A stretch of 38,758 nt of DNA, from IMG/VR virus record IMGVR_UViG_3300040789_000013. The stretch is one strand, 5' to 3'. This document shows positions 22 to 37,025 of this stretch, piece by piece. The first letter of the stretch is position 1; every line of letters begins with the position of its first letter. The notes below the pieces were generated by a model. The model was not told the origin of the DNA, ran no database searches, and saw only the letters and a list, made by a program, of their open reading frames with translations. Both the position numbers and the translations under genes were made by a program. This stretch comes from a virus.

Positions 22-423
22 ATCACTAAGCCGATCAATGACTCACTCAAAAAGATCCGGGATATGTTCCGTCCGTTTAAGACTCAAGTCAAGGGAGTCA
101 GCGATGATCTTAAAAAGCGACGTCAAACCTGGATCGATGCTGAGGCTGAGAAAGCTCGAGTCGAGGAGGAGCGTATCGCTAAGCGAGTAGAAAAGGGTAC
201 TATGCGAGAGGATACCGCTGTCGGTAAGCTCGCTAACATCGAGCAAGAGGCTCCAGATACTCGAGGTGGTATGACGTCAGTGTTAGTGGTCAAGGTGGTC
301 GACATTAAAGCGATTCCAGAAAAATACCTTACTGTTAACGAGACAGCGATCAAGGCTGATCATCGGGAGGGAGTCGATATCCCGGGAGTGGAGTGTACTT
401 ATGAGAAACGAGCTAGAAATTAA
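1..423 (+). CDS. 3' part of a junction-spanning gene (5' part at 38588..38758); coiled-coil protein resembling the siphovirus Gp157 family
   Basis: Frame 1 is open from base 1 and in frame with the listed 64..423 ORF. The ATG at 38588 reads through the 21-nt overlap, giving a joined product of about 190 aa. The N-half is charged and helical. The C-terminus (VVDIKAIPEKYLTVNETAIKA...GVDIPGVE) resembles Gp157-type proteins that head phage recombination modules. The family call is from memory. Confidence 0.55.
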   Translation: MDKQEKAITKPINDSLKKIRDMFRPFKTQVKGVSDDLKKRRQTWIDAEAEKARVEEERIAKRVEKGTMREDTAVGKLANIEQEAPDTRGGMTSVLVVKVVDIKAIPEKYLTVNETAIKADHREGVDIPGVECTYEKRARN

Positions 424-3288: not shown

Positions 3289-3821
3289 ACAATTTTATTT
3301 TGATACGCGTGCTCCCCGAAATACTCAAGAGCTTTCTCGTTATACCACTCAGCCGCCTCCCACTCATGCTCAAAACACTTAGTCTCTGGACGTCCATTTT
3401 TCTGGATGGTCGCTTTCCAGCTTTTAATTTTATATCGAGGATCTTTAATTTTACTTACTCCTTTATATTGAGAGCTAGGGTTTTTTAATTTTGGTTTTGA
3501 TCGTTTGTGTTGTTGTTTTTTTTGATACATTTTCCAGGCGGTACCATTAAACTCAGCTGTCGTCAGTAATAGTATATTTTCTTTACGATTGTCTAATGTA
3601 TTTTTATTTTTATACGCCACTTTACGCTGGATTTTAGGAGTATAAAGGAAACGGCTCATCGGTATACGTACCCAATTACCAGAGTCGAGCTTAAAGTTGG
3701 TGGATGCGTATACGTTACCGGAGCTGTCTGGTATAGCTTGCCAACTAAAACGACTTAAAAAAATGTAGTCCTCATCATCGACAATAGCTTTATATCCTTT
3801 TGTTAATTCTATTTCTCTCAT
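3285..3821 (-). CDS. AP2-domain DNA-binding protein of the phage HNH/AP2 homing-endonuclease-associated type
   Basis: The C-terminus (SQYKGVSKIKDPRYKIKSWKATIQKNGRPETKCFEHEWEAAEWYNEKALEYFGEHAYQN) fits the AP2 pattern YRGV..W.A.I......G.F....EAA.AY..A....FGE.A..N. The N-terminus (LTKGYKAIVDDEDYIFLSRFSW) is typical of phage AP2/HNH proteins. I saw no HNH catalytic motif. Confidence 0.65.
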   Translation of the reverse strand: MREIELTKGYKAIVDDEDYIFLSRFSWQAIPDSSGNVYASTNFKLDSGNWVRIPMSRFLYTPKIQRKVAYKNKNTLDNRKENILLLTTAEFNGTAWKMYQKKQQHKRSKPKLKNPSSQYKGVSKIKDPRYKIKSWKATIQKNGRPETKCFEHEWEAAEWYNEKALEYFGEHAYQNKIV

Positions 3822-5056
3822 ACATTGTCGGGCTTAATAGTCTTGTCATAAGCAATTACTTTTTTACTGACTCGGAAAAATCCTTGACTGAGAAATCCCT
3901 GGAAATGCAATCCCTCTAGCGTCCGGACTCGAGATACCGCGACGTACGCCTGTCCCTCAGCAAAAGCGTGCGAGACGTCGACAATAGCTCGATCGAGCGT
4001 CATCCCTTGCGATTTATGGATGGTGATCGCCCAGGCTAATTTTAATGGTAACTGAGAGATCTCAGCGTATATCTTACGGTTTTTACCATAACCGCTCGAC
4101 GCCTCCCAGGTCGCCGGATCTACCTCATAGCTCAGTCCGTTAGTGAGCTCGACGATAACTGAGTGAGGTCGTAGCTCAGTGACGATCCCTTGCGTACCGT
4201 TTACCCAACGGAGCTCTCCATCATTACGCGTAAAGAGGACCGGTGTACCGACTTTAAGTATCAGTCTCTCCGGGCTGAGACAGTTTTTCTTGAGCTTTTC
4301 AATAGCATCCGGGTACTTACTATCCTCTTGCATTACGTACGTCTGAGGAGGCGTATCTAGCCTCTCCAGCTGTCGATTATTGATCTGATCGACTTTCTTA
4401 TTATGCGTATCGAGTCGGATCTTAGGATCCTCGACGGTACTAGCGTCCTCGATTACTCTTGATCGGATGATATCTTTCTGGGTTTCCGTAAGGAAGCCCG
4501 AGCGGATATTCTGGAGGATCTCAGTAAATACCGGCTCAGTCTGACGCTTTTGCTCAGTCAGATAACAAACCTCGAGATCAGCCTCGTCCCAGTCCTCAGA
4601 CTCAAAAGCAAATCGTCCCTTGACTGGAGGTAACTGGAAAAAGTCGCCGACGACGATGACGCGGATCCCTCCGAAAAATAAGTTACGTCCCCGGGCTCGC
4701 TTAGCGATCTTATTAAGATTTTCCATAAGCGACGCCGATACCATCGAGATCTCATCGATGATCAGTGTCTCGGTCTCCAGGTAATTACCGTAAGCGTATC
4801 CCTCCAGGATATCGTCGACGTCCTGGTCCGAGAGAGGATGATCGTCGCGTAAGCCTCCCCAACTATGGAGAGTTTTACCGTTTACATTTAAAGCGGCGAT
4901 CCCGGTCGATGCGGTCATTATCGGAGCCTCTCCGTTATCGAGTAACCAGGCGACGTATTTATTTATGAGATACGATTTACCGGTCCCTGGAGCTCCAGTT
5001 AAAAAGATATTTTTGTTAGTGTTTTTCAGTATCTCGAGTGCTGAGTCTTGAGTCAT
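3818..5056 (-). CDS. PIF1/RecD-family DNA helicase
   Basis: Walker A (GAPGTGKS), TASTGIAA, IIDEISMV, VGDFFQLPPV, ITIHKSQGMTLD and YVAVSRVR occur in canonical order. The start is placed at the ATG at 5056 (MTQDS...). The extension to 5116 in the ORF track looks spurious. Confidence 0.8.
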   Translation of the reverse strand: MTQDSALEILKNTNKNIFLTGAPGTGKSYLINKYVAWLLDNGEAPIMTASTGIAALNVNGKTLHSWGGLRDDHPLSDQDVDDILEGYAYGNYLETETLIIDEISMVSASLMENLNKIAKRARGRNLFFGGIRVIVVGDFFQLPPVKGRFAFESEDWDEADLEVCYLTEQKRQTEPVFTEILQNIRSGFLTETQKDIIRSRVIEDASTVEDPKIRLDTHNKKVDQINNRQLERLDTPPQTYVMQEDSKYPDAIEKLKKNCLSPERLILKVGTPVLFTRNDGELRWVNGTQGIVTELRPHSVIVELTNGLSYEVDPATWEASSGYGKNRKIYAEISQLPLKLAWAITIHKSQGMTLDRAIVDVSHAFAEGQAYVAVSRVRTLEGLHFQGFLSQGFFRVSKKVIAYDKTIKPDNV

Positions 5057-7399: not shown

Positions 7400-7422
7400 G
7401 AAATCTAGCTCTAGTGAGAGAG

Positions 7423-7787
7423 TACTGTAACAGCCTCTCTTATCGATTATACGGCCTTGTATGGCCGTATTTTACGTTTTTTTTCGTGATTTTGGTTACA
7501 GTGGTTACGGTCCTGGTTACAGTGCTCGGCGGACCACTGTAACCGCTAATGTAGCCTTATATAGAGCCGTATAATTGCGATGCGGTTACAGTGTTACAGT
7601 GGTTACAGTACTTTTCCTATACTTTCCCCCAGCGACACTACTACTTATTAAATTACTTTTATTATATTGTACTGTAACACTGTAACCGTAGGTACTTTTT
7701 TAATGATTCTAGCCTTATTTATAGCGGTATTTTGTGGTTACAGTGCTTACGGAAATTTACTGTAACCGCACTGTAACCACTGTAACC
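7423..7787. repeat. iteron array; putative origin of replication
   Basis: There are at least 12 copies of GGTTACAGT(G) or its complement CACTGTAACC. Forward copies: 7494, 7515, 7584, 7593, 7601, 7736. Reverse copies: 7423, 7535, 7671, 7678, 7759, 7769, 7778. There is a degenerate GGTTACGG at 7503. An AT-rich core lies at 7611..7670. A second motif of about 22 bp (GCCTT.T.TAG.GC.GTAT.TT) occurs at 7453, 7554 and 7712. The array lies immediately downstream of the VirE-like gene. Confidence 0.7.
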
Positions 7788-7881
7788 GTCCGGGGTTGGT
7801 TTCTCATCACTTTGCAGGGTAATAGCGGTGCAAGGGTTAACCGCGCGGCGTGCAAAAAGTGGACAGGAATCTCCGCGGCGA

Positions 7882-9430: not shown

Positions 9431-9454
9431 GCACACTCTCCGGAGTGTGTTTTA
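9431..9454 (+). terminator. rho-independent terminator
   Basis: The stem is CACACTC / GAGTGTG with a 4-5 nt loop, followed by TTTT. Confidence 0.65.
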
Positions 9455-9463
9455 CTATTAGTA

Positions 9464-9472
9464 TGATAATAT
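9464..9472 (+). promoter_or_regulatory. extended -10-like box TGATAATAT upstream of the SPFH gene (leader of about 20 nt)
   Basis: It matches TGnTAATAT and lies directly after the terminator. Confidence 0.4.
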
Positions 9473-9498
9473 GTAATCATATTAAGTAATAACGGTAT

Positions 9499-11066: not shown

Positions 11067-11396
11067 ATGTCTGACGAGAAAAAAGTAAACCTCGACGAGC
11101 ATCATTCAGATCATATGGAGCAGCTAATCCGGAAGCGCCTCGCCACGCTGCTCCCTAAAGAGATGGTATCTAATGGTCAGGTAGCACTCGAGCATGTGCT
11201 CCTCGGTATTAACCACACGTCAGCATCTCCGGATGTGATGACGGCAAGTTACACCGGTCAGGATCGTAAACAGGTAATCTGTAATGCTGATTTTATTGAG
11301 CTGATTACTTTGTGGCGATGGGGATACGAGCTTAAGAGCCAGGATAATCGCTGCATGGCTCTCTGCTGTAAATTACTCAGGACCGGTATCAGGTAA
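11067..11396 (+). CDS. hypothetical protein
   Basis: 109-aa ORF, 2 nt after the previous stop. Confidence 0.5.
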   Translation: MSDEKKVNLDEHHSDHMEQLIRKRLATLLPKEMVSNGQVALEHVLLGINHTSASPDVMTASYTGQDRKQVICNADFIELITLWRWGYELKSQDNRCMALCCKLLRTGIR

Positions 11397-11407
11397 TGCT
11401 AAAATGT

Positions 11408-11649
11408 CTCAGTGTATTGCACACTGAGAGGAGGATACGAGACGAGACAGAGATGTCAGGGCGAGCCGTGCCGGTGATAGCATCAAAGGTACAGGCGAGG
11501 GAGGGCAGGACGGCCTTGTGGCTGACTCCCTCTCACTCATAAATGACGTGAGAGTAGCACTCGATCGGTCCGGGATACTTATCCAGTATCTAGTCAGTTA
11601 ATGAGTAGCGGCCGATGCTCATTAACAGCGTATCCTCCTCTGAGTGTGC
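11408..11649 (+). ncRNA. candidate structured RNA or packaging-site element upstream of terS (class unknown)
   Basis: The gap 11397..11670 has no plausible ORF and is more GC-rich than other gaps. Bases 11419..11439 pair with 11629..11649 at 20 of 21 positions. A competing local hairpin pairs 11408..11415 with 11421..11428. Internal hairpins pair 11597..11605 with 11618..11626 (9 bp), 11574..11579 with 11585..11590 (6 bp), and 11497..11503 with 11526..11532 (7 bp). Confidence 0.4.
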
Positions 11650-11656
11650 AATCGTG

Positions 11657-11662
11657 TACAAT
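11657..11662 (+). promoter_or_regulatory. -10-like hexamer TACAAT, 8 nt upstream of ATG 11671 (terS)
   Basis: The spacing matches the leaderless-type pattern seen at other genes. It has no canonical TGn extension. Confidence 0.35.
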
Positions 11663-11670
11663 ACGATTAT

Positions 11671-12261
11671 ATGAGCAGTAAGGCTAAAGGACGACGATCG
11701 CTGCCAATGCAGCGGACAGATAATAGAGAATTAGCGCCAGGGTACGAGGAGCGTCATCCTCAGTACTATGCCTATGAGCTAAATGATCCACACTTTCCAC
11801 CGATGGCTATTCGGTACTCGCATAATGCGTGGTGGATGGAAAAGTATAAACTCGAGAAGCTGATCGATGCGTATAAGATGCACTGTACAGATCTCGAGGC
11901 GTGCTACTTTGCTGGTATCACTAAGGCTCAGCTCCGCTACTTTAAAGATCTGCATCCAGAATTTAAAGAGATCCGAGAGCTCTGTAAACAGGAGCTCGGA
12001 TTTTATGCGCGTCAGAATGTGGCGCGAGATATCAAGTCCGGTAAGTATTCGCTCCGGTCCTGGGAGTATCTCCAGAAAAAGCATAAAGATGAGCTCGGTG
12101 ATTCTGTCGACGTTACGAGTGGCGGCAAACCGCTCAAAGCTCCGAGTAATGCTGTGGTGTTTATGGACTTTAGTAAACCGGACCAGCGAGAGCCGGAGGT
12201 GATCGATGCAGAAAAGATCCACGACGTTAATCCAGATACCGACGATGGAGAAAGTAAATAA
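11671..12261 (+). CDS. terS: terminase small subunit (putative)
   Basis: It lies immediately upstream of and overlapping terL. An HTH-like segment (CTDLEACYFAGITKAQLRYFKDLHPEFKEI) is typical of small terminases. The start is taken at ATG 11671; the GTG at 11644 lies inside the structured element. Confidence 0.55.
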   Translation: MSSKAKGRRSLPMQRTDNRELAPGYEERHPQYYAYELNDPHFPPMAIRYSHNAWWMEKYKLEKLIDAYKMHCTDLEACYFAGITKAQLRYFKDLHPEFKEIRELCKQELGFYARQNVARDIKSGKYSLRSWEYLQKKHKDELGDSVDVTSGGKPLKAPSNAVVFMDFSKPDQREPEVIDAEKIHDVNPDTDDGESK

Positions 12262-13519
12262 GTTATATCAGCCGCTCTTTATACCGCCTCCCGGGGTCCG
12301 CTACATTATCAATATGGGCGGTCGTGGTGGTGGACGTTCTCATGCCGCGGCTCAGAAAGCGAAAACAGTTTTAACTGATCCGAGCAAGTATCTCCGCGGC
12401 GCGATGATGCGTTATATTTATGGCGATATTAAAAACTCGATCTATCAGGATATTTACGACCGGATCGATGAGGCCGACATGCTGGATGATATCGATCTGC
12501 ATGGTCAGCCGCTCGGCTTTTCATATAAAAAAAATCGCATTAATGGTATCGGTTTTAAAAAGAGCTCAGGCGATCAAAAGTCTAAGCTCAAATCGCTCGC
12601 CGGTTATAACTTTATTCTGATCGAGGAGGCGGACGAGATTGCCGAGACTGACTTTATGCAGCTCGACGACTCGATCCGTACGACTAAGGGTGACATCCTC
12701 ATCGTGCTTAACTTAAACCCGCCAGAAAAAGATCACTGGATCATCAAACGCTGGTTTAATCTTATCGATACCGAGATCGAGGGATTTTACGAGCCGGTGC
12801 TTAAAGAGGAGCACAAACACAATACGATCCACATACATGCTACGTACTACGACAACATCGTTAACATCGATCCGACTACGGCATCTAACTTTGAGGGGTA
12901 CCGAGAAAGCAAGCCGGAGTATTACTGGAATACGATCCGCGGCTATGTGTCAGAGGGTGCTGTCGGCCGGATTTATAAAAACTGGAAACCGACCACGTAT
13001 GCAGAATTTAAAGAGCTCCCCTACCCGTCTATCTATGGGCTCGACTTTGGTTTTAGTAACGATCCCGCGGCGCTTGTGGAGATCAAGATGCACAATAATA
13101 AAATATGGGTACATCAGCTGCTCTATCAGACCGGCCTACACAATATCGGAGCCGGACCAGATACATTATCCAAACGATTCGAGGACCTGGATCTCTCCGG
13201 GCAGGATCTTATTTACGCTGATTCAGCCGAGATTAAATCGATCGAGGAGCTATGCGGTGACGGCTGGTATGTTGAGCCAGCTGTAAAAGGTCCTGGGTCA
13301 GTTAATGCGGGGATCGACTTGCTCCAGGGATTCGAGGTGTACTATACCGAGGAGTCAGTCGACATCGCTCGAGAGTCTCGAGAGTATAAGTATCGTCTCG
13401 ATCGCAACAAAGTGCCGACCGGTAAGCCAGAGGACGGTAACGATCATGCGCTGGATGCGATTCGGTATGCGGTATTTTCTCATCGCCAGTCCACATTTGT
13501 CGGATTCGCTGGTAAGTAG
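12245..13519 (+). CDS. terL: terminase large subunit (PBSX/Terminase_3-like)
   Basis: The Walker A-like GGRGGGRSH sits in the context RYIINMGGRGGGRS. ILIEEADE resembles Walker B. The C-terminal nuclease region contains GLDFGFSNDPAA and DHALDAIRY. An alternative start lies at 12206. Confidence 0.85.
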   Translation: MEKVNKLYQPLFIPPPGVRYIINMGGRGGGRSHAAAQKAKTVLTDPSKYLRGAMMRYIYGDIKNSIYQDIYDRIDEADMLDDIDLHGQPLGFSYKKNRINGIGFKKSSGDQKSKLKSLAGYNFILIEEADEIAETDFMQLDDSIRTTKGDILIVLNLNPPEKDHWIIKRWFNLIDTEIEGFYEPVLKEEHKHNTIHIHATYYDNIVNIDPTTASNFEGYRESKPEYYWNTIRGYVSEGAVGRIYKNWKPTTYAEFKELPYPSIYGLDFGFSNDPAALVEIKMHNNKIWVHQLLYQTGLHNIGAGPDTLSKRFEDLDLSGQDLIYADSAEIKSIEELCGDGWYVEPAVKGPGSVNAGIDLLQGFEVYYTEESVDIARESREYKYRLDRNKVPTGKPEDGNDHALDAIRYAVFSHRQSTFVGFAGK

Positions 13520-18410: not shown

Positions 18411-18441
18411 TCGATCGGCGACTGAGTACAGTTAACAAGAG

Positions 18442-18462
18442 GCTCCCTCCGGGGAGCTTTTT
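18442..18462 (+). terminator. rho-independent terminator after the capsid gene
   Basis: The stem is GCTCCC / GGGAGC with loop TCCG, followed by TTTTT. Confidence 0.7.
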
Positions 18463-18465
18463 GTG

Positions 18466-18474
18466 TGATATCAT
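18466..18474 (+). promoter_or_regulatory. extended -10-like box TGATATCAT, 6 nt upstream of ATG 18481
   Basis: It shows leaderless-type spacing immediately after the terminator. Confidence 0.45.
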
Positions 18475-18480
18475 ACTGAT

Positions 18481-18882
18481 ATGGTTTTTCAAGAAAAAGA
18501 GCTCGAGACGGGAGGGTATGAGTACAAGGTCCAGGATGTCTTTGGTGAGATGATTTTTACGTCTGATATAAAACTAAGCGGCGACAAGCTCGACGGTATG
18601 GTATCCTTATTACTAAGACAGGGACACAATGCGGAAACCGTCCAGGGGGAGGTTAAGCATGATACCGGTACTGTCACTTATAAATTTACTAAGGAGCCTC
18701 AATGGGCCGACGTTCCTCCAGAGGAGGAAAAAGAATGGGACGAACCATGCGAAAATACACCTACATCGACAAAAGAAACGGAAAGCGTGTTTACTCAGAT
18801 AAACCGCTTAATAAGCCGTATCTGGAAAAAGCTACAGAGGTCCGTGGTAGCGTTCCGCAAGGCATGGAAAAATCCGGAGTAA
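18481..18882 (+). CDS. hypothetical protein
   Basis: 133-aa ORF. Its 3' third is overlapped by a second coding-looking frame (see 18747..18929). Confidence 0.5.
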   Translation: MVFQEKELETGGYEYKVQDVFGEMIFTSDIKLSGDKLDGMVSLLLRQGHNAETVQGEVKHDTGTVTYKFTKEPQWADVPPEEEKEWDEPCENTPTSTKETESVFTQINRLISRIWKKLQRSVVAFRKAWKNPE

Positions 18883-34710: not shown

Positions 34711-34712
34711 TG

Positions 34713-34721
34713 TGCTATCAT
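34713..34721 (+). promoter_or_regulatory. extended -10-like box TGCTATCAT, 8 nt upstream of ATG 34730
   Basis: It shows leaderless-type spacing. Confidence 0.4.
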
Positions 34722-34729
34722 ATAAACAT

Positions 34730-35896
34730 ATGAAAGCAAACCCTATCCACTACTACTGTCTAGTCGATAAGTCAGACAGAAACTGGAGGAGACGATTAAA
34801 AGCGTTCCAGAACGAGATGGAACGGACTCACTCGTGTACGTTCACAGTCGAGGGATTCGATGCTGAGAAAATTGAGTGGACTGACCGTCGAGAGCGACTG
34901 TATGCTTCTGACGATTTTGTTTTTTCTCACACGAACCGTATCTATAAAGAGCACGGTAAAAAAGTCGATGCGGTTAAGTTCTTCGTTTCAGAGGATAACT
35001 GGAAGCAGGGTAAGTATCGATTGAAAGGTTTTAAGCTCGGTCGTATTTTCGATGGTTACTACGTGACGTTTACCCGGCTACGTTACGCTAAAGATACCGG
35101 AGAGCACGAAGCTCTCCATCTCGTAGATGAGTACATTAAAGCGAACACTGGAGTCTCTCTCGAGGTAGTGTTTAAAGTCGATGACTTCGATGACGATATC
35201 GTTCACTCAGAGAAATACTGGAAAGACCAGGATTATAAATACGATGTAGTCTGGGATAAAATCGCTGACCATCTCAGTAACGCTGTCTACCAGCGACGCC
35301 AGGGGACGTTCACGAACCGTATCGCTATGATGCAGCTAGTGATTAAGTTACTGCTTCAGAAGATACAGTTACTCGAGTATAAGAGTAATTCTATTTATGA
35401 GGTGGAAATCCGGGAGCGTCATACGACTAAGTTTACTGACCGTCCGCTGCTAGCGGAGAACGCTATCATCGGTCATATTGACCTGGGGACTGAAGCCGGG
35501 ACCATTAACGAAATCCTTAATGGTACAAAGTCAGCCAGCTACCACTGGTATATCCCTCGTCACGCTAAGTATGTCATCGAGTTTGTACCGAAAGAAAAGA
35601 CAGCCTGGCACGCTGGACGTCTCAGTAATCCGGAAGCTGGGCTGGCTAAGCTCCTCGGTGGTCCGAACGAGCGTATCGAGTCCGGAGAGCCTAATAACTA
35701 TGCGTACGGGATCTGTTATGAGGGCATCGATGCAAACACTCCGCCTAATGATGAGCAGATCGATCTCGCTGCTCAGCTAATGCGCCGCAAAAAGATCCAC
35801 ACGCTCCCGGTGGTAGCACACTACCAGGTGACGGATTATAAGCCGCGCATCGTGTCGAGGTTTGTGGAGGGTATTAAAAAAATTGTAAACAAATAA
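34730..35896 (+). CDS. endolysin: C-terminal N-acetylmuramoyl-L-alanine amidase (Amidase_2/PGRP) with an N-terminal domain carrying HExxH
   Basis: The C-terminus shows IIGHID, SASYHWYIPR, TAWHAG, YAYGICYEG and VVAHYQVTDYK, the Amidase_2 pattern. The N-terminal domain contains GEHEALHLVDE (HExxH). The start is set at ATG 34730. Confidence 0.75.
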   Translation: MKANPIHYYCLVDKSDRNWRRRLKAFQNEMERTHSCTFTVEGFDAEKIEWTDRRERLYASDDFVFSHTNRIYKEHGKKVDAVKFFVSEDNWKQGKYRLKGFKLGRIFDGYYVTFTRLRYAKDTGEHEALHLVDEYIKANTGVSLEVVFKVDDFDDDIVHSEKYWKDQDYKYDVVWDKIADHLSNAVYQRRQGTFTNRIAMMQLVIKLLLQKIQLLEYKSNSIYEVEIRERHTTKFTDRPLLAENAIIGHIDLGTEAGTINEILNGTKSASYHWYIPRHAKYVIEFVPKEKTAWHAGRLSNPEAGLAKLLGGPNERIESGEPNNYAYGICYEGIDANTPPNDEQIDLAAQLMRRKKIHTLPVVAHYQVTDYKPRIVSRFVEGIKKIVNK

Positions 35897-35899
35897 TTT

Positions 35900-36163
35900 A
35901 TGGAGTCATTACTTTTGTTAGCGGTACCGATTATCGCCTCACTACTTACACAACTGGTAAAGTCTATCCAGTCGATAAAATTCTCGAGCGCTAAGTCAGC
36001 TATCCTCCGGGTAGTGGCCGCGACGCTCTCGTTTATCGGTGTGGTTATACTGAACATCGCTAATGGTGAGCCGGTGCCGCTCGATCAGATTAACGTCTAT
36101 GCAGAGGCCCTGGTCGCTTTTTTCGCCACTCAGGTACCGTACTGGTTAGCTAAAAACAAATAA
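35900..36163 (+). CDS. small membrane protein (holin/spanin-like)
   Basis: 87 aa with 2-3 hydrophobic helices. It is the last gene before a strong terminator. Confidence 0.5.
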   Translation: MESLLLLAVPIIASLLTQLVKSIQSIKFSSAKSAILRVVAATLSFIGVVILNIANGEPVPLDQINVYAEALVAFFATQVPYWLAKNK

Positions 36164-36177
36164 AGTCGACCACATAG

Positions 36178-36210
36178 AAAAAATCCCGGGTAACAATCCG
36201 GGATTTTTTC
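36178..36210. terminator. rho-independent (potentially bidirectional) terminator ending the late operon
   Basis: The stem is ATCCCGG / CCGGGAT with an 8-nt loop, flanked by an A6 run and a T6 run. Confidence 0.7.
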
Positions 36211-36345
36211 TCAGCTGTGGATCTCTAAAAAATAAATGTGTGTGATCCTAACCCGCTCTTTTCGAGCAAAATGTGTACCCGCAACGGCTCAACAGGTACA
36301 TTTATATAATACCAGATGAGTACGTACAGTTATTAACAGTATGTT

Positions 36346-36361
36346 AATATGATATCGTATT
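36346..36361. promoter_or_regulatory. AATATGATATCGTATT near-palindrome containing extended -10-like TGATATCGT (36350..36358), 6 nt upstream of ATG 36365
   Basis: It differs by one base from the perfect 16-bp palindrome at 38543. It shares the flanking GTTAATATGATATC with the 5978 copy. Confidence 0.4.
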
Positions 36362-36364
36362 ACT

Positions 36365-36650: not shown

Positions 36651-37025
36651 ATGGAGATCTGGAGACCAGTGCTCGAGTTCGAGAATCGATACGAGGTGAG
36701 CAATTATGGTCGGGTCCGGTCACTTGCTCGCTGTAACGAAAAGCTCAAACATATATGCTACCCGGAGCGGATGATGAAACTGCACGTACACACTAATAAA
36801 TATCAGGTGGTCTGGTTACGCCGGCCGGGAGTGCATAAAAAATTTTATGTGCATCGTCTGGTCGCGGTCGCGTTCCTGGATCCTGTCGACGGTAAAGACT
36901 ACGTTAATCACAAGGATAAGGACCGACTTAATAATCATATCGACAATCTCGAGTATATGACTCATCAGGAAAATTGCGACCACCGGGACGGTAAGTGTCC
37001 GCCAAACAATGACGAGCCGTTTTAG
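36651..37025 (+). CDS. HNH homing endonuclease (NUMOD4 + HNH_3 type)
   Basis: The N-terminus is IWRPVLEFENRYEVSNYGRVRSL (NUMOD4-like). The HNH motif is VHRLVAVAF...VNHKDKDRLNNHIDNLEYMTHQEN. Confidence 0.8.
   Translation: MEIWRPVLEFENRYEVSNYGRVRSLARCNEKLKHICYPERMMKLHVHTNKYQVVWLRRPGVHKKFYVHRLVAVAFLDPVDGKDYVNHKDKDRLNNHIDNLEYMTHQENCDHRDGKCPPNNDEPF

Follow-up and report, generated by a model that had tools for sequence, protein, structure and literature searches.

The intergenic region of 240 bases directly 5' of the small terminase gene terS in the window (the whole 38,758-nt stretch of viral DNA that was analyzed) contains a real, evolutionarily conserved folded RNA, which belongs to a family of structured non-coding RNAs that had not been catalogued before. 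Homologs are present in ~11 lineages of related uncultivated phages, and the architecture common to all full-length members consists of a long closing helix (P1), a 5' bulge (J1/2), a second helix (P2), and a multi-way junction. No Rfam family matches the element; it may already be listed in an extensive set of candidate RNAs predicted computationally from IMG/VR (PMC10690425). The parts of the element and the adjoining genes are as follows.

11397-11405, + strand: extended -10-like box TGCTAAAAT, which may act as the RNA's own promoter; the start predicted from it is ~11412, 4 nt before P1
11407-11429, + strand: P0, a competing local hairpin of 9 bp (11407-11415/11421-11429) made up of TCTCAGTGT, the loop ATTGC, and ACACTGAGA
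11416-11439, + strand: 5' arm of P1, located by inverted-repeat search, predicted fold, and homolog alignment
11440-11458, + strand: J1/2, the P1-P2 junction (5' bulge), containing the mini-hairpin P1a
11459-11462, + strand: 5' strand of P2, GGGC, which pairs with 11568-11571; the GA that follows opens the conserved GGCGA motif
11465-11496, + strand: P3, a junction hairpin arm predicted in the window and in the relative L006, with one compensatory pair
11497-11532, + strand: P4, a junction hairpin arm that includes the 11497-11503/11526-11532 stem, with four compensatory pairs relative to L006
11533-11549, + strand: J4/5, a single-stranded junction strand holding CAUAAAUGAC (11538-11547)
11550-11562, + strand: P5, a hairpin whose loop, U(A/C)GC, is conserved and in which 3/3 aligned pairs covary
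11568-11571, + strand: 3' strand of P2, GUCC, within a conserved GGUCC
11574-11626, + strand: two extra hairpins (11574-11590 and 11597-11626) of the long forms only (window and L006)
11629-11652, + strand: 3' arm of P1, which on the DNA overlies -35 to -13 of the putative terS promoter
11657-11662, + strand: TACAAT, a -10-like box and putative promoter, 8 nt before the terS ATG and inside a small hairpin (~11650-11668)
11671-12261, + strand: terS, small terminase, 196 aa, with a weak match to phrog_4102 and aligned homologs
12206-13519: terL, following terS, of the Terminase_3/PBSX headful type

Fold and covariation of the element

The arms of P1 are 24 nt each and 96% complementary, with 23 of the 24 positions paired around 189 enclosed nucleotides, so that the closing helix is slightly longer than the 20 of 21 bp given in a preliminary description of this region. 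As RNA, the + strand of 11397-11670 folds at -116 kcal/mol compared with -82.8 ± 4.8 kcal/mol for 200 dinucleotide shuffles (z = -6.85), a control proposed in that description and one in which none of the 200 shuffles is as stable. The - strand of the region gives a z value of -4.17, and the folds of the relatives L006, L009, and L008 give values of -6.0, -6.3, and -3.6, respectively. The three interior hairpins noted earlier are all found in the predicted fold, and the stems starting at 11497 and 11597 covary, the latter with five compensatory pairs relative to L006 (11597-11607/11616-11626); the 11574-11579/11585-11590 stem is identical in L006 and is therefore uninformative on covariation. 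An alternative pairing suggested for 11530-11536 and 11548-11554 is not supported, as these segments are complementary in the window and not in L006, the closest relative. The region had also been said to lack a credible open reading frame, in agreement with the finding that its 48-aa (+ strand) and 43-aa (- strand) frames have no counterpart in L006 and that none is conserved. Its portrayal as the largest gap outside the origin is inexact, as several gaps are larger in a simple map of open reading frames of at least 90 aa (e.g. 424-880, 7400-7849, and 35897-36364), and so is its portrayal as more GC-rich than other gaps, the values being 0.54 for the element and 0.479 for the genome.

The 3' arm of the long forms came out in the wrong place in a full-length MAFFT alignment, and alignment A4 was built without the two lineage-specific hairpins; because model R1 mis-aligns the 3' arm of the window, A4 and A8 were used to assess the window. 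A search for covariation in related phages had been recommended in the preliminary description, and the compensatory changes lie above controls: 96.4–97.0% of the alignment cells are paired and double compensatory changes occur in 29–31 of the 40 pairs, compared with at most 10 pairs in any slid control and with 0/500 shuffles matching. RNAalifold reports 28 of the 40 pairs as compensatory, and the window and L006 alone differ by 17 compensatory pairs. Five helices covary. P1 is 17–28 bp long across homologs and shows compensatory double changes in 18–19 of 23 aligned pairs, although its primary sequence is almost unconserved. P2 is 7–8 bp long in the homologs, with compensatory changes in 5–6 of 8 aligned pairs and one G.U pair that is invariant in 16/16 sequences. 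The helix at the P4 position covaries in the multi-lineage alignment, and every homolog has a hairpin at the P3 position that is variable in length and sequence (GCC-GCAA-GGC in L008). Among 546 positions of P1 and P2 in 17 sequences there are 63 G.U pairs, no A.C pairs, and 15 other mismatches, so that G.U is tolerated and A.C is not, indicating an RNA of the + strand and not a double-stranded pac site. Bit scores for the reverse strand are 25–45, compared with 105–190. The structured RNA that had been listed as one of three possible identities is thus borne out by the covariation in ~11 lineages, the 63:0 ratio of G.U to A.C, and the stable + strand fold.

The most conserved nucleotides of the family are the unpaired junction strands GGCGA and CAUAAAUGAC, together with the U(A/C)GC loop of P5. 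The most conserved stretch of all is J4/5, which reads CAUAA(A/C)NGRC in 16/17 homologs (CGUAAAUGAC in L030) and also in three compact relatives; a start codon within CAUAAAUGAC was considered and dropped, the AUG being missing in L008, L043, and L048. In the long forms J1/2 is a hairpin, P1a in the window (GACA-GAGA-UGUC, 11446-11457, with a GNRA loop), which shows an A-U to G-C compensation relative to L006. The mini-hairpin is replaced in 15/15 shorter homologs by a self-complementary hexamer, GAUAUC, GGAUCC, AGAUCU, or UUAUAA. All shorter homologs also lack the extra hairpins of 11574-11626, with an 11-nt hairpin at this place in L039. The 3' strand of P0 is a portion of the 5' arm of P1, and the competing hairpin, put at 8 bp in the preliminary description, extends to 9 bp, a length attained in only 0.6% of cases when the 30 nt upstream are shuffled (p = 0.006). 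Equivalents of at least 6 bp with 4–5-nt loops (9 nt in L048) occupy the same place with differing sequences in 6/9 lineages (L006, L008/L041, the L019 group, L030, and L048), and none was found in L009, L028/L049, and L039. The proposed two-fold switch is therefore supported insofar as the competing hairpin recurs in most lineages with differing sequences; it does not recur in all of them, and the second alternative pairing is unconserved.

Distribution and relation to known RNA classes

The element lies directly 5' of terS in every lineage with a readable downstream gene, with strict adjacency in 16/17 full-length homologs and in the compact relative L097, and all terS homolog loci that have upstream DNA contain it. 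It is present as a single copy in each genome. The distance to the terS ATG is at most ~65 nt wherever terS is present, a proximity that would fit a role in cis on terS as well. The compact relatives consist of a core of ~75 nt, followed by a divergent terS in L097, by an open reading frame with a terS-like N terminus in L050, and by a phage tmRNA gene in L064. The upstream open reading frame varies by lineage and is not part of terS; in L008, L039, L041, and L048 it runs into the element, so that ribosomes would unfold the element on at least some transcripts. The contig of the window is a circular assembly with 21 nt common to both ends.

The distribution of the family is narrow, which limits its immediate impact. 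No phage record in INPHARED matched a DNA search with the element, and the nearest terL shares only 38% identity. Exact matching of a 16-mer taken from an arm of the closing helix gave five chance matches in IMG/VR, single-protein terS and terL scans of IMG/VR returned nothing, and a first core pattern retrieved only GC-rich coding chance matches there. A stricter core pattern found no match in metagenome and genome collections, and a search of GTDB genomes with a terS profile detected no prophage.

None of the 4227 models of Rfam 15 reaches its gathering threshold anywhere in the window, and within 11300-11750 only chance-level matches (E > 3) were obtained; the element was likewise unmatched in six homolog loci and in the three compact relatives, in line with the earlier failure to place it in any RNA family. 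The absence of hammerhead, twister, and tRNA signatures reported before also agrees with these searches, as the self-cleaving ribozyme models (hammerhead, twister, twister-sister, pistol, hatchet, HDV, hairpin, and glmS) are unmatched even at E <= 10 and ARAGORN detects no tRNA or tmRNA in the window. No known riboswitch aptamer class matches, and the downstream gene is terS with a promoter-like box before its ATG. A group I intron was rejected since no Rfam intron model matches and the flanking open reading frame differs by lineage and is not a terS exon. A miniature inverted-repeat transposable element was rejected as well, there being one copy per genome at a constant syntenic site and the repeat TCTCAGTGT/TCTGAGTGT lying inside the 3' arm and not outside it. 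Resemblances to the hammerhead (CUGANGA/GAAA), twister, ZTP (GGCGAAC), and sarcin-ricin loop motifs (ACGAGAGG in P5 of some lineages) were dropped as unconserved or wrongly arranged. No RNA of a comparable kind upstream of terS was found described in the literature.

Putative transcription signals around the element

We infer both promoters, the ends of the RNA, and any processing of it from sequence. A matrix built from 14 gene-proximal boxes of the same phage assigns 9.4 bits to TGCTAAAAT, and just 45 of 38,747 window positions reach at least 8 bits. Most lineages (window, L006, the L019 group, L028, L030, and L043) have their best-scoring box 10–14 nt before P1, with only 3–6 bits for several of these boxes; no box occurs at this distance in L008, L009, L039, L041, L048, and L049, making it weak or absent in ~6/17 sequences. 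On the other side of P1, a TAnnAT box is seen by eye 6–8 nt before the terS ATG in 17/17 homologs, with the terS start assigned from the conserved N terminus K-G-R/K-R-S-L. The matrix scan chose this box in 15/17 homologs, whereas in L030 and L039 its choice lay 3 nt before the ATG. An arrangement of box, spacing, and ATG like that of terS precedes ~14 other genes of the window, and Shine-Dalgarno sequences are almost entirely missing from the phage genome.

The -10-like box at 11657 of the preliminary description is thus real and conserved in position in all homologs, and its leaderless spacing between P1 and the ATG places the element upstream of the probable terS transcription start. The RNA is probably not the terS leader, and the terS mRNA would be near-leaderless from its own -10-only promoter. 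The earlier suggestion of a regulatory leader for the packaging operon is weakened to this extent, the box being found in every lineage.

Evidence for termination at P1 differs among the lineages. In the window P1 is followed by CGUGUACAAU, where a terminator scan finds no terminator and there is no U-run. UUUU(U) follows P1 in the L019 group, L009, L028/L049, and L039, with the layout P1-UUUUU-G-...TGATAATAT-N6-ATG in the L019 group. The run is missing in the window and in the L006, L008, L030, and L041/L043/L048 lineages, indicating that termination at P1 is not a general property. Elsewhere in the window (18440-18483 and 9431-9450), a plain terminator hairpin with a U-run stands before such a promoter exactly where P1 does.

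Possible functions of the RNA

Our leading explanation, which we hold tentatively, is that P1 clamps a discrete non-coding RNA, which is not the terS 5' leader and which additionally serves as a marker of the middle-to-late gene boundary. The RNA would be produced from the weak -10-only promoter just before P1 or from the 3' end of the preceding operon. P1 would set and shield the ends of a discrete RNA of ~140–240 nt and is long enough for RNase III, and it would close the upstream transcription unit right before the separate -10-only terS promoter. The folded core would be the functional part and presumably binds a partner; a boundary role alone leaves the conservation of the junction strands unexplained. 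The four mutually compensating versions of the self-complementary J1/2 hexamer suggest dimerization, in which two molecules of the shorter forms would probably pair through the hexamer, with an intramolecular hairpin at this place in the long form of the window. Modeling of homodimers with RNAcofold, which cannot represent kissing contacts, gave only trivial strand-swapped duplexes.

A clamped discrete RNA of this type has partial counterparts among known RNAs. Like 3'-UTR-derived sRNAs embedded in terminators, 6S RNA, and Y RNA, the element would be made at the end of a coding operon as a discrete structured body, with ends paired, as in 6S and Y RNA, in a long helix that would protect it from exonucleases. 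In contrast to these RNAs, it has no central bubble, no Ro, Hfq, or ProQ motif was recognized in it, and P1 greatly exceeds an ordinary terminator stem in length; to 6S and Y RNA it has no sequence or covariance-model similarity. With 23/24 bp in the window and 17–28 bp in the homologs, P1 compares with the continuous double-stranded helix of ~20 bp or more of RNase III stems, which at rRNA flanks and T7 inter-cistronic sites also surround structured RNA with more than 20 bp or lie between phage cistrons. The T7 sites, unlike P1, are local hairpins of ~50 nt with an internal loop, and cleavage of P1 is a conjecture. Like the element, the λ 6S/tR' late leader and the HK022 put RNAs are short RNAs encoded after the final regulatory or middle gene and ahead of the late operon, at the early-to-late boundary; in some lineages the element has a constitutive-looking promoter of its own before it and a hairpin and U-run after it. 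In contrast to the element, λ 6S has no conserved multi-helix core, the put RNAs are two simple stem-loops of ~70 nt, and neither has a 23-bp enclosing helix; here, the putative terS promoter follows the element and no antitermination factor was found.

If confirmed, the element would enlarge the small repertoire of structured RNAs encoded by phages by one well-supported new class, with an architecture of a long clamp helix, a multi-way junction, and a part that is an intramolecular hairpin in some members and a self-complementary strand in others. It is located where the replication/middle genes border on the packaging operon, among phages whose expression grammar appears unusual, with almost no Shine-Dalgarno sequences and putative -10-only promoters giving leaderless mRNAs, and could therefore reveal how such phages punctuate and time transcription.

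A different role, which we consider possible but rather unlikely, is that of a cis-acting regulatory RNA at the middle-to-late switch, where formation of P1 or P0 would decide between termination, pausing, or entry of RNA polymerase into terS and the 25-kb late operon. The choice would be set by ribosomes finishing the upstream open reading frame or by a protein bound to the core, with a logic like that of a leader-peptide attenuator or a put/EAR-type antitermination RNA. The adjacency to terS fits this role, as do the competition of P0 for the 5' arm of P1 in six of nine lineages, the U-run after P1 in 4–5 lineages, and the stop codon of the upstream frame in the P0 loop, P1, or the core in many lineages (a 24-codon micro-ORF in L019/L022; also L028, L039, L008, L048, and L041). 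As regards a leader-peptide attenuator, a micro-ORF ends at P0 or P1 in several relatives; the window has neither micro-ORF nor U-run, and the same is true of L006. The place of the stop codon relative to the structure is variable, P0 is missing in three lineages, and where present it spans just 5–9 of the ~23 pairs of P1, which wins over P0 in every minimum free energy fold. The conserved leaderless-spaced box between P1 and the ATG in all lineages and the tmRNA gene that follows the core in L064 also speak against regulation of this kind. Self-cleaving ribozymes are common in phage genomes, and a new class of them, or a processing signal that cuts polycistronic transcripts between the upstream message and the downstream RNA, would be compatible with a compact core of ~75 nt whose highly conserved junction strands and loops are typical of catalytic or ligand-binding cores, as well as with its position upstream of two kinds of functional RNA, the terS mRNA and tmRNA. 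We regard this as improbable given that no known self-cleaving model matches, no cleavage site can be inferred, and the downstream units carry putative promoters of their own.

A DNA-level pac signal, in which TerS would recognize the inverted repeat and its interior, is highly improbable in spite of its classical position, the pac site of SPP1 being found just upstream of and inside gene 1. The headful type of terL and the circular assembly, as expected of a permuted headful genome, would accommodate such a site, and the contigs of several short relatives end near the element; however, these contigs are short metagenomic fragments whose ends do not coincide. At a symmetric protein-binding site in duplex DNA, A.C mismatches should be as frequent as G.U (G.T), contrary to the counts of 0 and 63, and such a site would not be expected to keep five covarying helices, a fold specific to the + strand, and a P1 of almost unconserved primary sequence. 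This disfavors the pac/cos identity that had been listed earlier. The least probable of these explanations is a packaging RNA analogous to the pRNA of phi29, which would self-associate and join the portal-terminase motor. The element adjoins terS, terL, and the portal gene, and resembles pRNA as a phage RNA of 120–240 nt that has a long helix of its 5' and 3' ends, a multi-way junction, a link to packaging genes, and a covarying self-complementary element fit for intermolecular pairing. There is no homology, however, and the Rfam pRNA model (RF00044) is unmatched; the pairing element here is a palindrome, which would give dimers, and not two complementary loops, which give rings. To our knowledge pRNA is confined to phi29-like phages, which have no terS and package protein-primed DNA, whereas the phage described here has both terS and terL.

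More broadly, the element could be a self-associating RNA of the packaging module, either a J1/2-paired dimer acting with terminase as a pRNA-like cofactor or scaffold, or an RNA with a catalytic or processing role in defining the termini of packaging-gene transcripts, a proposal that we view as doubtful at best. ROOL, GOLLD, and OLE are phage-associated, self-assembling ornate RNAs of 500–800 nt that are present in Rfam. The element is similar to them in being phage-borne, in its strong covariation, and in its possible homo-oligomerization, but is 140–240 nt long and without an Rfam match, and its self-association is suggested by the covarying palindrome. If real, either version of this proposed packaging-module RNA would give terS/terL headful phages their first associated RNA component.

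Genome context and fold of the element

The window is a complete tailed phage genome assembled as a circle (38,737 bp), and the 21 nt at the two contig ends (1-21 and 38738-38758) are identical. Because the assembly is circular, the contig ends are uninformative on the physical termini. The gene order is as follows.

First in gene order: replication genes (Pif1/Dda helicase, primase zinc ribbon, VapE)
Between these and the element: small-gene block (glycosyltransferase, SPFH/Band 7, unknowns)
11671-12261: terS, the small terminase gene, directly after the element
After terS: late genes, with terL (Terminase_3 type), a portal-MuF fusion, capsid genes, tail genes and the Amidase_2 lysin
34712-35896: Amidase_2 lysin, which implies a bacterial host
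36651-37025: free-standing NUMOD4 + HNH_3 homing-type endonuclease gene, near the late-region end

The best terL match among sequenced phages has 38% identity, none being close, and no DNA match of the element was found among them. A related phage (L008) carries its HNH_3 gene elsewhere, at 4217-4519, and the 725-aa terL of another (L046, 705-2882) carries an intein (PF14890 Intein_splicing). The terS start is the ATG at 11671, from which homologs conserve the N-terminus (K-G-R/K-R-S-L motif); the public terS call on an identical contig (L010 10001, equal to window 11836) begins 55 codons too late and gives 141 aa.

The closing inverted repeat of the preliminary description was recovered as helix P1, with 24-nt arms at 11416-11439 and 11629-11652 that contain one mismatch and enclose 189 nt. 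The local hairpin proposed over its 5' arm, P0, is likewise present (11407-11415/11421-11429, 9 bp) and overlaps that arm, and all three interior hairpins listed earlier occur in the predicted fold. As + strand RNA, 11397-11670 folds at -116 kcal/mol, 6.9 SD better than dinucleotide shuffles, and the complementary strand gives z = -4.2 in the same comparison. Rfam 15, searched with the whole window, gave no match at gathering thresholds and chance-level hits only in the element region, in line with the earlier failure to assign an RNA family. Of the two small ORFs crossing the element, neither is matched in L006, the closest relative.

A conserved RNA family upstream of terS

A terS search returned three diverged homologs (51-65% identity), whose contigs were fetched, and terS profiles run on IMG/VR and metagenomes gave 20 more loci and then further contigs. 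A homologous element is present at every locus that includes the DNA upstream of terS, ending 14-26 nt before the ATG (49 nt in L039). The element is absent from L044, a phage with a remote terS (37% identity) that starts 4 nt after the previous gene; this phage uses an AGGAGG ribosome-binding site. A wider search, by core-motif scan and then covariance model, added one lineage (L054/L082/L083) and three distant compact versions, which precede a divergent terS (L097), an ORF with a terS-like N-terminus (L050) and a phage tmRNA gene (L064). On the L064 contig the gene order upstream is unchanged. The covariance model finds one copy per genome. The L064 tmRNA (Rfam, 74 bits) lies directly downstream of the compact form, with a -10-like box, CATCAT, placed for transcription start at the mature tmRNA 5' end; the contig also encodes a tRNA (26-328 (-) and 3320-3391 (-), respectively).

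One parse fits all 17 full-length sequences, which are 136-237 nt in total length:

P1: closing helix, 17-28 bp in the 17 sequences
J1/2: 5'-side junction between P1 and P2, 7-17 nt, with nothing opposite
P2: 7-8 bp (5-6 bp in the window and L006), ending in an invariant GGC/GUC that includes a G.U pair
GA dinucleotide: after the P2 5' strand
P3 and P4: hairpins of variable length
CAUAAAUGAC: single-stranded, between P4 and P5
P5: hairpin with loop U(A/C)GC
P2 3' strand: runs directly into the P1 3' arm

In the window and L006, the longest forms, P2 is separated from the P1 3' arm by two additional hairpins (11574-11626). At about 75 nt, the compact relatives retain P2, GGCGAAC, a single hairpin whose 17-nt loop is conserved, CAUAAAUGACGU, P5 and GGUCC.

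In the 12-sequence alignment 96.4% of cells are paired, with both-side changes in 29 of 40 pairs; in the 16-sequence alignment the figures are 97.0% and 31 of 40, and they lean towards the structure to which that alignment was fitted. In slid controls the number of such pairs never exceeded 10, and not one of 500 column shuffles matched the observed values. Between the window and L006 alone, 17 pairs differ in a compensatory way. P1 and P2 together contain 63 G.U pairs and no A.C, whereas a protein-bound repeat in duplex DNA would gather both kinds equally, and the covariance model gives the reverse strand a far lower score. Covariation, this asymmetry and the low reverse-strand score indicate that selection acts on the structure in the single-stranded form of the + strand; since the phage genome is double-stranded DNA, this form is RNA. 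The element is a conserved, strand-specific, multi-helix RNA family outside Rfam and syntenic with terS, and for something that came from a scan its reality is unusually well supported.

A feature absent from the preliminary description is a self-complementary hexamer in J1/2, found in all 15 shorter forms as GAUAUC, GGAUCC, AGAUCU (within GAGAUCUC) or UUAUAA. Every difference among these four versions keeps self-complementarity; across these RNAs, palindromic hexamers have a background rate of 0.025 per position. In the two long forms this position folds within the molecule into a 4-bp hairpin whose loop is GAGA; between the window and L006 it has a compensatory A-U to G-C change. The loop of the equivalent L097 hairpin contains UGAUCA. 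Most simply read, the position requires a short helix, which two molecules would form by pairing in the short forms and one molecule in the long forms.

Putative promoters, terminators and upstream ORFs

The window phage has almost no Shine-Dalgarno sequences, terL being one of the few exceptions. About 14 of its genes are preceded by TGnTAnnAT, then 6 nt (occasionally 7-8), then ATG. Examples, as hexamer start and ATG:

8500 and 8513
13873 and 13886
18469 and 18481
18934 and 18946
25625 and 25637
31882 and 31894
32368 and 32380
33927 and 33939
34716 and 34730

From its sequence and spacing, this module is probably an extended -10 promoter with the start at or beside the A of the ATG, giving leaderless mRNA; such mRNAs from -10-only promoters are predicted in the early and the structural gene block alike. 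In all lineages terS carries a box of this kind, 6 or 8 nt 5' of its ATG, and the P1 end lies 4-12 nt from it in most lineages (38 nt in L039). An ordinary terminator stands directly before a promoter module elsewhere in the window, at 18440-18483 (after the capsid gene) and 9431-9450. At 18440-18483 (GGCTCCCTCCGGGGAGCTTTTTGTGTGATATCATACTGATATG) and 9431-9475 the terminator hairpin and U-run are followed at once by TGnTAnnAT, a compact terminator-promoter punctuation, and the stem at 9431-9450 (GCACACTC...) resembles the base of P1 (GCACACTG...). The same arrangement, with a U-run after P1, occurs in the L019 group, L009, L028/L049 and L039; the window and five further lineages lack the U-run. 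A good extended -10, TGCTAAAAT (11397-11405), stands 5' of P1 in the window. In most lineages the best upstream box lies 10-14 nt before P1, and its score is often weak; at that distance none was found in about 6 of the 17 sequences.

As read from the sequences, the stop codon of an upstream ORF falls within P0 (in its loop), P1 or the core in several lineages; one such ORF is a conserved micro-ORF of about 24 codons. Many relatives have a conserved acidic micro-ORF or C-terminal tail (e.g. MDRLTEEESNEWGQILDMIRESE, 23-24 codons) just upstream of the RNA, its stop codon at one of these three places (L019 ~313-384, L022 ~2660-2731, and equivalents in L020, L028, L049, L008, L039, L041 and L048). 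The micro-ORF is absent in the window and L006 and is interrupted by a stop in L043.

Possible roles of the RNA

The transcript starts and ends of the RNA, like its function, are inferred. Our preferred reading, held tentatively, is a discrete non-coding RNA whose two ends would be clamped by P1, which would also close the upstream transcription unit directly before a separate promoter from which a near-leaderless terS mRNA would start. It is favored by the geometry of the putative promoters on each side, by P1 being placed like a terminator, by a 5'/3' clamp such as stable RNAs typically have, by the L064 element adjoining another RNA gene, and by the core, whose conservation implies a functional folded structure. 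The main rival, which we consider rather unlikely, is a cis regulator of read-through into the late operon, acting by P0/P1 competition and upstream-ORF translation. P0 recurs with differing sequences in six of nine lineages (lineage P values combined by hand with Fisher's method, ~0.006). A new ribozyme or processing signal is improbable. Still more so is a pac site acting at the DNA level, given selection as a single strand, and a pRNA-like packaging RNA is the least probable of these readings.

The element represents a new RNA family, narrowly distributed, of a known general kind: structured non-coding or boundary RNAs encoded by phages. More than 10,000 computational RNA candidates from IMG/VR have been catalogued (PMC10690425), and the element may already be present, anonymously, among them.
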